Source of the DNA: an uncultured Saprospiraceae bacterium
GTDB lineage: Bacteria; Bacteroidota; Bacteroidia; Chitinophagales; Saprospiraceae
Reading direction: 5' to 3'
DNA length: 64,000 nt
NCBI GenBank assembly: GCA_937980645.1
Contig: CALJPQ010000009.1
Span: forward strand, 54,018 to 118,017
In this document: one piece after another, positions 2,140-3,129 of the stretch
How positions within the stretch are numbered: position 1 is the stretch's first letter
Layout: each line of letters starts with the position of its first letter
Notes under the pieces: generated by a model
What the model was told of the DNA's origin: nothing
Database searches by the model: none
Seen by the model: only the letters and a program-made list of their open reading frames with translations
Position numbers and translations under genes: made by a program

Positions 2140-3129
2140 CTAACAATGGCATACCTGGGATTGCCTTTGTCGGTGCGCCGAAGCGCCACCTACGCGAAGT
2201 CCCGCGTAATATCGGTAAGCCCAATCCCGGCATTTTGCCCGGGCGGCAGCAGAAGCCCTAGAGCGCGCACATACGGCCAGCATGTTAGTGAGCATAGCCC
2301 TGTCACAGGCGCTTCGGTCGGAACCGCAGGTCTGATAGCATTCGTCGTGCAAATCGCAAGGTAAACCCAGACTTGCGCCCGTCTTGGAGCCAAAGTGCGT
2401 ATCCGCTCCGCCGGCGGGGTTATCCTTATCTATCCCTAAAAAATTAGCCAGTGCTGTAGGTACACTGCAGCCGTCGTATTCAAAGTGCCACCGGCCGCCA
2501 ACACAGGCGCGCTGTACGGCGCCTTCGCGTTGTTGCCCCACATGCACCAACTCATGGGCCAACAACCGCCTTCCTCGCTCGCTCGAAGGCTGATACTGCC
2601 CTTGTCCAAAGACAATATCCCGTCCGCTCGTATAGGCCCGCGCCTGGATGGCTGCTGCGCTGTGAGCAGCCTGGGCATCGGTATGGACGCGCACCTGAGA
2701 GAAGTCCTGCCCAAAGCGGCTTTCCATAAACTGAAGCGTGCCGGTATCCATTGGCCGCCCATCGCTACGCGCCAGCGTCTGCCGTACGATGGGCGGAGCG
2801 GAAAAGCCGCTCGAGGCTCCTGTGGTTTCTTTGCGTTGGGCCTGCTCTTCGCGTTCGCATTCGGTGCATTTGCGCTGGATGCGCGGCACGGTGCTGAGCG
2901 ACATACGCTGAAGGATAGGTACTTCGCCGTCTCGCATGCGCACGACCTGGTCAGCCACGCGGTCGGCTTCTTGCTCGTAGGCGTCGCCGGGGGTGTTGAC
3001 GGTAAGTTTAGGTTGGAAGAATGCAGAAGCCCTGCTCTTCGCCTTGGTAGCGGTCTGCTGAGCGTGGATCGTTTCGTTTTTTGCTCGTGCCTGAAACATT
3101 ATATATAAGATAAGAGAAGTGAAGATCAA
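2140..3129 (-). CDS. DUF4157 (eCIS-associated zincin-like) domain protein with C-terminal prokaryotic/fungal PLA2-like domain; putative eCIS payload
   Basis: DUF4157 signature: LQFMESRFGQDFSQVRVHTDAQAAHSAAAIQARAYTSGRDIVFGQGQY...RLLAHELVHVGQQ. C-terminal signature: FEYDGCSVP...LPCDLHDECY...CDRAMLTNMLAVC...CRDWAYRYYAGL. The latter matches the D.CS.P / C.RHD.GY / C...C...YY layout of secreted bacterial PLA2. The true start may be the internal M at 3099. Confidence 0.7.
   Translation of the reverse strand: MIFTSLILYIMFQARAKNETIHAQQTATKAKSRASAFFQPKLTVNTPGDAYEQEADRVADQVVRMRDGEVPILQRMSLSTVPRIQRKCTECEREEQAQRKETTGASSGFSAPPIVRQTLARSDGRPMDTGTLQFMESRFGQDFSQVRVHTDAQAAHSAAAIQARAYTSGRDIVFGQGQYQPSSERGRRLLAHELVHVGQQREGAVQRACVGGRWHFEYDGCSVPTALANFLGIDKDNPAGGADTHFGSKTGASLGLPCDLHDECYQTCGSDRSACDRAMLTNMLAVCARSRASAAARAKCRDWAYRYYAGLRVGGASAHRQRQSQVCHC

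Follow-up and report, generated by a model that had tools for sequence, protein, structure and literature searches.

We analyzed a stretch of 64,000 nucleotides from an uncultured Saprospiraceae bacterium (GCA_937980645.1, contig CALJPQ010000009.1, positions 54,018 to 118,017 of the forward strand), referred to below as the window, in which one complete extracellular contractile injection system (eCIS) operon spans the minus strand from ~27300 to the left edge. Near the end of this operon lies a gene whose product carries an eCIS_core (DUF4157) domain followed by a Cys-rich domain that we assign, from its sequence, to the secreted phospholipase A2 (PLA2) superfamily. We describe this gene and the evidence for its family, the operon that contains it, and the role that it may play as a cargo of the injection system.

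The target gene

A preliminary description of this DNA had pointed to an open reading frame (ORF) of 329 amino acids (aa) at 2140..3129, and it is indeed present on the minus strand. The length of 329 aa is counted from a TTG at 3129, the start given in the ORF list, whereas a public gene call with an identical product starts from the ATG at 3099 and is 319 aa long. Residues are numbered here according to the 319-aa protein, with 329-aa numbering for the TTG start given where marked. The gene is organized as follows:

2140..3099, minus: target gene, 319 aa, in the order N-terminal domain (NTD), eCIS_core, PLA2-like domain
2755..3099, minus: N-terminal region (residues 1-115), of low complexity, probably disordered and a putative signal for loading
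2944..3021, minus: conserved NTD motif FFQPKLTVNTPGDAYEQEADRVADQV
2521..2754, minus: eCIS_core/DUF4157 zincin-like domain, residues 116-193 of 319 (PF13699, E=5.9e-34)
2542..2556, minus: HELVH (HExxH) motif
2143..2520, minus: PLA2G12-like secreted-PLA2 superfamily domain, residues 194-319, 126 aa, 10 Cys
2458..2475, minus: D-G-C-S-V-P, putative Ca2+-loop motif
2392..2430, minus: DKDNPAGGADTHF, conserved loop peculiar to the family, lying after the Ca2+-loop motif and before the catalytic helix
2344..2349, minus: predicted catalytic His-Asp, H251-D252 (H261-D262 of 329), within C-D-L-H-D-E-C-Y
2302..2304, minus: Asp of a conserved C-D (D266 of 319), which may pair with the catalytic His

The NTD (residues 1-115) consists to 76% of disorder-promoting residues, a figure of composition obtained without a disorder predictor. 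Its motif FFQPKLTVNTPGDAYEQEADRVADQV is unchanged in the orthologue from a sister Saprospiraceae metagenome-assembled genome (MAG), L007, and is common to the 525-aa protein encoded next to the target, where BLASTP aligns it as LFQPK..LAVNTPDDALEREAD. The eCIS_core domain (PF13699) covers residues 126-203 in 329-aa numbering (E=6.2e-34), and HELVH stands at residues 192-196 of that numbering, as the preliminary description had it. In Geller et al. 2021 (PMC8213781), an N-terminal DUF4157 is reported to mark eCIS toxins, and its presence here at E=6e-34 agrees with the earlier appeal to that literature. Neither a signal peptide nor a transmembrane (TM) segment was found in the protein, whose highest Kyte-Doolittle value over a 19-aa window is 0.84.

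Comparison with the L007 orthologue, which is 88% identical in the C-terminal domain, gave ratios of nonsynonymous to synonymous substitution rates (dN/dS) of 0.17 for the whole gene, 0.31 for the NTD, 0.07 for the eCIS_core and 0.11 for the C-terminal domain. The last two values place both the eCIS_core and the PLA2 domain under strong purifying selection, and the low dN/dS against this sister genome indicates that the gene is functional.

A divergent PLA2-like domain

The preliminary description read the C-terminal domain as a secreted PLA2 of the prokaryotic/fungal type. The superfamily stands, but the nearest family is the group XII-like PF06951 (PLA2G12) and not the prokaryotic/fungal PF09056. 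PF06951 scores 24.7 bits (E=2.6e-5) against the whole protein and 26.8 bits (E=6e-6) against the domain alone, below its gathering threshold of 34 bits, and PF09056 scores 11.1 bits (E=0.63), below its threshold of 29.4. The domain thus lies outside both Pfam PLA2 families by their own thresholds. A phmmer search of the PDB with the single domain returned nothing relevant.

A word-indexed homology search with the single domain found 3 relatives only, which badly understates the size of the family. A profile built from these and the target domain (4 sequences) was therefore run exhaustively against 1.84 billion cluster representatives, yielding 3,275 proteins at E<=1e-3, of which 303 pass E<=1e-10 and 66 pass E<=1e-30. 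Conservation and Pfam matches were scored on 115 full-length family representatives clustered at 50% or less: PLA2G12 is matched by 82/115 (best 3.6e-14), eCIS_core by 53/115, and PF09056, at E<=1e-3, by 41/115 (best 2.3e-9). Comparisons with the PDB and with named proteins, as well as structure prediction, used a 43-sequence family profile. In the PDB this profile matched essentially PLA2s only: 1FAZ (E=8.5e-8), 4AUP (E=6.8e-6) and 7YGK (E=1.9e-3). The likeness to Streptomyces-type PLA2 that the preliminary description proposed to check by profile search stays below threshold in the single-sequence PF09056 score (11.1 bits against 29.4) but is present in the family profile, which matches the Streptomyces violaceoruber enzyme (1FAZ). 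Named proteins matched by the profile include a 'Conodipine-M alpha chain' (Pomacea), a 'Phospholipase A2' (Triparma) and a 'secretory phospholipase A2'.

Profile-profile comparison with 15 eukaryotic PF06951-type proteins (hhalign) reached 99.4% and E=1e-21 in an alignment of 100 columns that begins at GCS.P and extends to the terminal C.C, so that homology to PLA2G12 is established despite the sub-threshold score of the single sequence. Judged by sequence, the C-terminal domain is a true but divergent member of the secreted-PLA2 superfamily. It is closest to the group XII-like branch in its catalytic helix, Cys framework and C-terminus, keeps N-terminal motifs also found in the Streptomyces/fungal type, and is best called a PLA2G12-like sister family.

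Three residues are invariant in the 115 representatives: H251, D252 and C277. A further set is conserved in at least 90% of them, comprising D209, G210, C211, P214, N227, P228, T234, F236, C248, D249, C254, Y255, Q256, C258, C265, D266, C290, A294, Y297, Q313, C317 and C319. The target domain has ten Cys in 126 aa, and 10 is also the modal Cys count of the family; the Cys framework announced in the preliminary description is of the 10-Cys group XII type instead of the 4-Cys Streptomyces type.

H251-D252 align to H64-D65 of 1FAZ and to CDLHD.CY of the PLA2G12-type set. The dyad named earlier as catalytic, H261/D262 in 329-aa numbering, is the His-Asp of CDLHDECY and is the invariant pair of the family. 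D266, at the level of sequence, aligns to D85 of 1FAZ and is at least 90% conserved; the second Asp that partners the catalytic His is Asp99 in groups I/II and Asp85 in the S. violaceoruber enzyme. The D, G, C and P of D-G-C-S-V-P are at least 90% conserved, and the motif resembles, by eye, D43-L44-C45-T-Q-A-P49 of 1FAZ, a stretch whose residues we take to form the Ca2+ loop, as well as GCS.P of the PLA2G12-type set. In the loop DKDNPAGGADTHF, N, P, T and F reach the same level of conservation, and the counterpart in 1FAZ is D50-N51-P52.

The four peptide strings quoted in the preliminary description are located at window 2458-2484, 2335-2364, 2269-2307 and 2197-2235. The verified 1FAZ sequence runs D43-L44-C45-T-Q-A-P49-D50-N51-P52...C61-A-R-H64-D65...D85, and the window domain runs D-G-C-S-V-P, 11 residues, D-N-P...C-D-L-H-D...C-D. 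Since these motifs read in parallel, the D.CS.P skeleton proposed earlier is real, and a D-x-C-S-x-P / DNP / C-x-x-H-D-x-x-Y / CD / YY pattern can be followed against 1FAZ.

An AlphaFold2 (AF2) model of the domain, computed from the 43-sequence alignment, is confident (pLDDT 90.2, pTM 0.84) and has three main helices. Its top Foldseek match in the PDB is 4AUP (prob 0.89, TM 0.43-0.45, E=0.21), and its top match in BFVD is a phage 'Phospholipase A2' (prob 1.00, root-mean-square deviation 1.7 A over 63 columns, E=0.035). When only 4 sequences were used, the N-terminal half of the model was poor, and its Foldseek matches were mere noise. The structural matches of the predicted fold are weak alone and only corroborate the sequence evidence.

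Distribution and deployment of the family

Among the 151 top representatives, 58 carry an eCIS_core, which lies upstream of the PLA2 domain in 56/58 with a median linker of 42 aa, and the PLA2 domain ends at most 15 aa from the C-terminus in 96/151. A scan of species-representative genomes gave 41 loci in Bacteroidota, Acidobacteriota, Planctomycetota, Actinomycetota, Chloroflexota, Proteobacteria, Nitrospirota, Balneolota-type bacteria and Archaea, six of them with eCIS_core-PLA2 fusions. eCIS structural genes adjoin the domain in the Saprospiraceae sister genome; in an Acidobacteriaceae MAG, a standalone PLA2 of 142 aa is encoded beside sheath and tube genes; and in Aliifodinibius, the domain lies within an eCIS cargo array past the tape-measure gene.

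Other delivery modules are also found. A 272-aa protein of a Desulfatirhabdium MAG (L034 7336-9217) has the PLA2-like domain at its N-terminus and PAAR at its C-terminus; its gene comes directly after a VgrG-like gene, with a reversed domain order for a spike-tip toxin. RHS repeats are fused to the domain in 1/115 representatives. Elsewhere in the family, N-terminal regions carry Ig-like, Glucodextran_B and CarboxypepD_reg repeats, and there are standalone small proteins as well. In Acidobacteriota and Planctomycetota MAGs, the domain ends giant ORFs of ~1000-2200 aa (L013, L018-L026, L029-L033, L035, L039), which suggests a second, non-eCIS deployment in large secreted or surface proteins. 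Because it is attached to such varied delivery modules across lineages, the domain behaves as a polymorphic-toxin C-terminal module. Biochemical characterization of the bacterial PLA2G12-like family was not found in the searchable literature.

The eCIS operon and its putative cargo genes

The preliminary description took the protein to be a putative eCIS payload, and the setting supports this: the operon is complete, its structural genes lie upstream of the cargo genes, and the target is flanked by the tape-measure gene on one side and the AAA ATPase gene on the other, with other genes interspersed. The genes of the operon are:

26919-27275, minus: AraC-type regulator
19207..26678, minus: eCIS structural core (Pvc16_N through gp25)
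26103-26678, minus: Pvc16_N protein
25360-26106, minus: 248-aa ORF, no family match
23887-25287, minus: sheath
23358-23789 and 22828-23289, minus: two gp19-type tube proteins
21914-22642, minus: CIS_tube
20075-21904, minus: VgrG-like spike
19723-20013, minus: PAAR
19207-19629, minus: gp25
12989-19210 and 10137-12992, minus: two large baseplate proteins
6678-10010, minus: 1110-aa repeat-containing protein, probably a fiber
5299-6681, minus: CIS tape-measure protein (PF19268, E=4.8e-112)
4738-5256, minus: 172-aa lipoprotein-like ORF
3148-4725, minus: second cargo gene, 525-aa eCIS_core protein (PF13699, E=2.4e-35)
1144-2106, minus: 320-aa protein downstream of the target, with segments that look hydrophobic and TM-like by eye
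3-1121, minus: Peptidase_S8 (subtilase), cut by the window edge (PF00082, E=5e-13)

The AAA ATPase gene comes after the subtilase on an identical public contig (L003), beyond the window edge, giving the order tape measure, 172 aa, 525-aa cargo, target, 320-aa membrane protein, S8 and AAA at the cargo end. Window genes past 28 kb are mostly housekeeping or unrelated; a lysyl-tRNA synthetase groups with those of Saprospiraceae MAGs, in keeping with an origin in this family of the phylum Bacteroidota. An NCBIfam scan of the target and its neighbors gave nothing useful.

The target and the 525-aa neighbor align over the NTD and core (BLASTP 5e-31) and diverge directly past the core. The neighbor has a second HExxH in its C-terminal domain, a layout like that of Cgo1, a cargo of AlgoCIS, the eCIS of Algoriphagus machipongonensis. 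The cargo array has turned over between the sister genomes (window 3148-4725 versus L007 7799-9436): in place of the 525-aa protein, L007 encodes two others, a zincin of 219 aa (HEIGHALGLGH) and an HEMTH protein of 316 aa, and it retains both the PLA2 cargo and the membrane protein of 320 aa.

Two structural genes have repeats. The putative fiber protein contains 3.2 tandem repeats of 108 bp, 98% near-perfect, at 8890-9235, encoding coiled-coil units of the KANQTDLD... type; the shaft of the fiber may thus have varied in length recently. The 2073-aa baseplate-region protein (12989-19210, minus) bears several CarboxypepD_reg/Ig-like repeats and, by analogy, may be an outward baseplate extension like the one described as a 'cage' in AlgoCIS (PMC8894135).

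Candidate immunity genes

No adjacent cognate immunity gene for the PLA2 domain was identified at the window locus. The 320-aa membrane protein was considered and rejected for this role, as its family tracks Saprospiraceae eCIS loci and not the PLA2 domain. This family is unannotated and comprises at least 407 proteins. Its members accompany AAA and S8 genes in Saprospiraceae eCIS loci, including loci that lack a PLA2, and some occur away from any eCIS locus. A Phaeodactylibacter eCIS locus that has no PLA2 encodes a member between its AAA and Peptidase_S8 genes. The family is represented at L048 9001-10014 as well as in the window. A role of the 320-aa protein in lysis, release or assembly is possible.

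The 172-aa ORF at 4738-5256 (minus) lies between the tape-measure and cargo genes and has a lipoprotein-like N-terminus, MTMKGLLFLLMALMLMNALPSSC. It has no family match and is not present at the sister locus in L007; it could encode an immunity or accessory protein.

Proposed function and alternatives

We propose, at a probability of roughly 0.62, that the target is an eCIS cargo, an effector whose PLA2 domain would hydrolyze membrane phospholipids. By analogy with AlgoCIS, the NTD of ~115 residues would be the loading signal, and the AAA+ ATPase of the operon would feed the unfolded cargo into the tube lumen. The eCIS_core/DUF4157 domain would be an accessory module that may serve processing or refolding. 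By sequence, the C-terminal 126 residues, with their intact His-Asp dyad, partner Asp, putative Ca2+-loop motif D-G-C-S-x-P and ten Cys, form a group XII-like secreted PLA2 (sPLA2) domain. Sheath contraction would then expel the cargo into or onto a target cell, where the domain would fold, bind Ca2+ and hydrolyze the sn-2 ester of membrane glycerophospholipids, leading to membrane damage.

As a rule, an sPLA2 requires disulfides and a high level of Ca2+. The domain would presumably be inert in the reducing, low-Ca2+ cytoplasm of the producer, which would explain the absence of an evident immunity gene. It should be most active at an oxidizing, Ca2+-rich site, such as the Gram-negative periplasm or the extracytosolic or lumenal face of a membrane.

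Several points weigh against this proposal. The single sequence falls under the gathering thresholds of both Pfam PLA2 families, and neither Foldseek E-value (0.21 and 0.035) is significant alone. The Ca2+ loop was matched by eye, and the hidden Markov model alignment to 1FAZ begins only past that motif. For two further eCIS_core-PLA2 fusions, which are orphans, no eCIS structural genes are found nearby, so that linkage to an eCIS operon is not universal. ML_1 (DUF4157, PLA2G12, LysM), the sole tested protein of such architecture, was not toxic in yeast (PMC11297309), a result for which dependence on disulfides and Ca2+ is a possible explanation. More generally, it is awkward that a 10-Cys, Ca2+-dependent enzyme fits poorly with delivery into a reducing eukaryotic cytosol.

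The yeast result would also fit a domain that has the PLA2 fold but does not act as a lipase, serving as a Cys-rich binding or membrane-targeting module, with any toxicity coming from elsewhere, for example from the HExxH module. The position of the domain under the Pfam thresholds fits this idea, as does its DKDNPAGGxDTxF loop, which is not found in the eukaryotic PLA2G12-type set. Mammalian PLA2G12B, which is catalytically inactive, illustrates a PLA2 fold without lipase activity. However, inactive proteins of the PLA2G12B type have lost the catalytic His, unlike the window family, in which His and Asp are invariant in the 115 representatives and the partner Asp, a Tyr and D-G-C are conserved in at least 90% of them. 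The toxicity of AlgoCIS Cgo1 does not depend on HExxH (PMC8894135), and the yeast cytosol would be a poor test for an enzyme that depends on disulfides and Ca2+. On balance, we regard a lipase-dead module as unlikely.

We think it very unlikely that the protein is not injected at all and acts on the producer, for instance in lysis for particle release together with the downstream membrane protein and S8 protease. eCIS particles are freed by lysis of the producer, a step to which Geller et al. speculate that eCIS-associated toxins contribute (PMC8213781), the conserved 320-aa membrane protein and subtilase come after the target, and an immunity gene is not evident. Yet the target has no signal peptide by which to reach an oxidizing compartment, its NTD-DUF4157 layout is that of the proven lumenal cargos of AlgoCIS, the trio of membrane protein, S8 and AAA also occurs in eCIS loci without PLA2, and the domain is elsewhere fused to PAAR and RHS delivery modules. 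Finally, a chance resemblance between Cys-rich sequences of unrelated fold, as might be read into the sub-threshold single-sequence Pfam match, the empty phmmer search of the PDB and the empty Foldseek search with the 4-sequence model, is effectively refuted by the hhalign result (E=1e-21 over 100 columns), by profile matches in the PDB to PLA2s only (8.5e-8, 6.8e-6 and 1.9e-3) and by a PLA2 as top structural match in two independent libraries.

A broader but rather improbable picture may also be sketched. The PLA2G12-like domain would be a large, essentially unannotated prokaryotic toxin family and among the commoner eCIS cargos. Because it needs five disulfides and Ca2+, if indeed it does, it would travel unfolded and refold oxidatively outside the target cytosol, and this class of eCIS would deliver to the periplasm of Gram-negative prey or to a membrane face that is lumenal or extracellular. 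Eukaryotic sPLA2s of group XII and of the conodipine type might even have their prokaryotic counterpart, or their source, in this family.

What is new here is that PLA2G12-like domains form a large family in bacteria, most of which escapes notice because it scores below Pfam thresholds, that its fusion to eCIS_core is recurrent, and that PAAR, RHS and giant surface proteins have recruited it as well. eCIS particles are being engineered for protein delivery, and few of their native cargos have a known biochemical activity. The target offers a clear in-operon case of a predicted lipid-hydrolyzing cargo, with His251/Asp252 as the obvious active-site control. Its dependence on disulfides and Ca2+ would be a testable handle on, and a constraint for, the compartment that such eCISs reach.

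Comparison with known systems

The proposed activity is functionally analogous to that of the phospholipase effectors (Tle) of type VI secretion systems, membrane-targeting lipases delivered by a contractile apparatus. Tle effectors are alpha/beta-hydrolase or phospholipase D-type enzymes paired with periplasmic immunity proteins. The window domain differs from them in predicted fold and catalytic mechanism, and no Tle-type family, among which TplE is cited in PMC11297309, matched the target.

With the PF09056 PLA2s (S. violaceoruber, 1FAZ; group XIII of Tuber borchii, 4AUP), the domain shares D-x-C-[ST]-x-x-P, D-N-P, C-x-x-H-D-x-x-Y, the partner Asp (D85) and a C-terminal YY...FG. The S. violaceoruber enzyme has only two disulfides (PMC6635587), whereas the window domain has ten Cys and an 11-aa insertion between its two N-terminal motifs. 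With the group XII sPLA2s (PF06951), it shares GCS.P, C-D-x-H-D-x-C-Y-Q-T-C-G, C-D, the YY/FG region and a terminal Q...C.C. The bacterial family lacks two Cys that are conserved in the eukaryotic PLA2G12-type set, one opening the CC and the other in the helix after it, and has its conserved DKDNPAGGxDTxF loop where the eukaryotic set has a short GEEDFT. The target, for its part, has no signal peptide, and its PLA2 domain is joined to a delivery module. All of the 15 aligned eukaryotic PLA2G12-type proteins except that of Pomacea have a signal-peptide-like N-terminus (by eye) and a long C-terminal extension; 13 of those 14 end in -EL (KDEL-like), suggesting retention in the endoplasmic reticulum.

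The organization of the target is reminiscent of the AlgoCIS cargos. Cgo1 and Cgo2 fill the lumen of the tube and disappear from it when the particle contracts, as seen by cryo-electron tomography and mass spectrometry, and Cgo1 toxicity is independent of its HExxH motifs (PMC8894135). The NTD is required for loading, DUF4157 as well as the CTD (C-terminal domain) being dispensable, and the AAA+ protein is proposed to be a cargo unfoldase (bioRxiv 10.64898/2026.05.27.728243). Like AlgoCIS, the window holds a Bacteroidota eCIS with NTD-DUF4157-CTD cargos at the same operon position, and the 525-aa neighbor has, as does Cgo1, a second HExxH in its CTD. Features of a Cgo-type cargo that the target shows are its position in an eCIS operon, a probably disordered NTD common to both window cargos, DUF4157 and a variable CTD. 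This likeness is one of layout and operon position. The two systems part at the C-terminus: the CTD of Cgo1 is a predicted metalloprotease, and no PLA2 is described for Cgo CTDs (PMC8894135; bioRxiv 10.64898/2026.05.27.728243).

A like architecture is that of ML_1 from Halogeometricum rufum (IMG 2618035200), in which DUF4157 is likewise followed by PLA2G12 and the gene adjoins an eCIS AAA gene. ML_1 differs from the target in being archaeal, in its length of 466 aa (supplementary table) and in an extra LysM. In the tables of Geller et al. 2021, PLA2G12 occurs in one eCIS gene of 22 dataset genes and is classed as a 'Cloud' eukaryotic domain (PMC8213781); that single gene is the ML_1 of Danov et al. 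2024 (PMC11297309). The DUF4157-PLA2G12 architecture had thus already been listed once, and the window gene is a further example. Where the 2021 survey had one eCIS PLA2G12 gene, our profile search finds the fusion in 53-58 cluster representatives.

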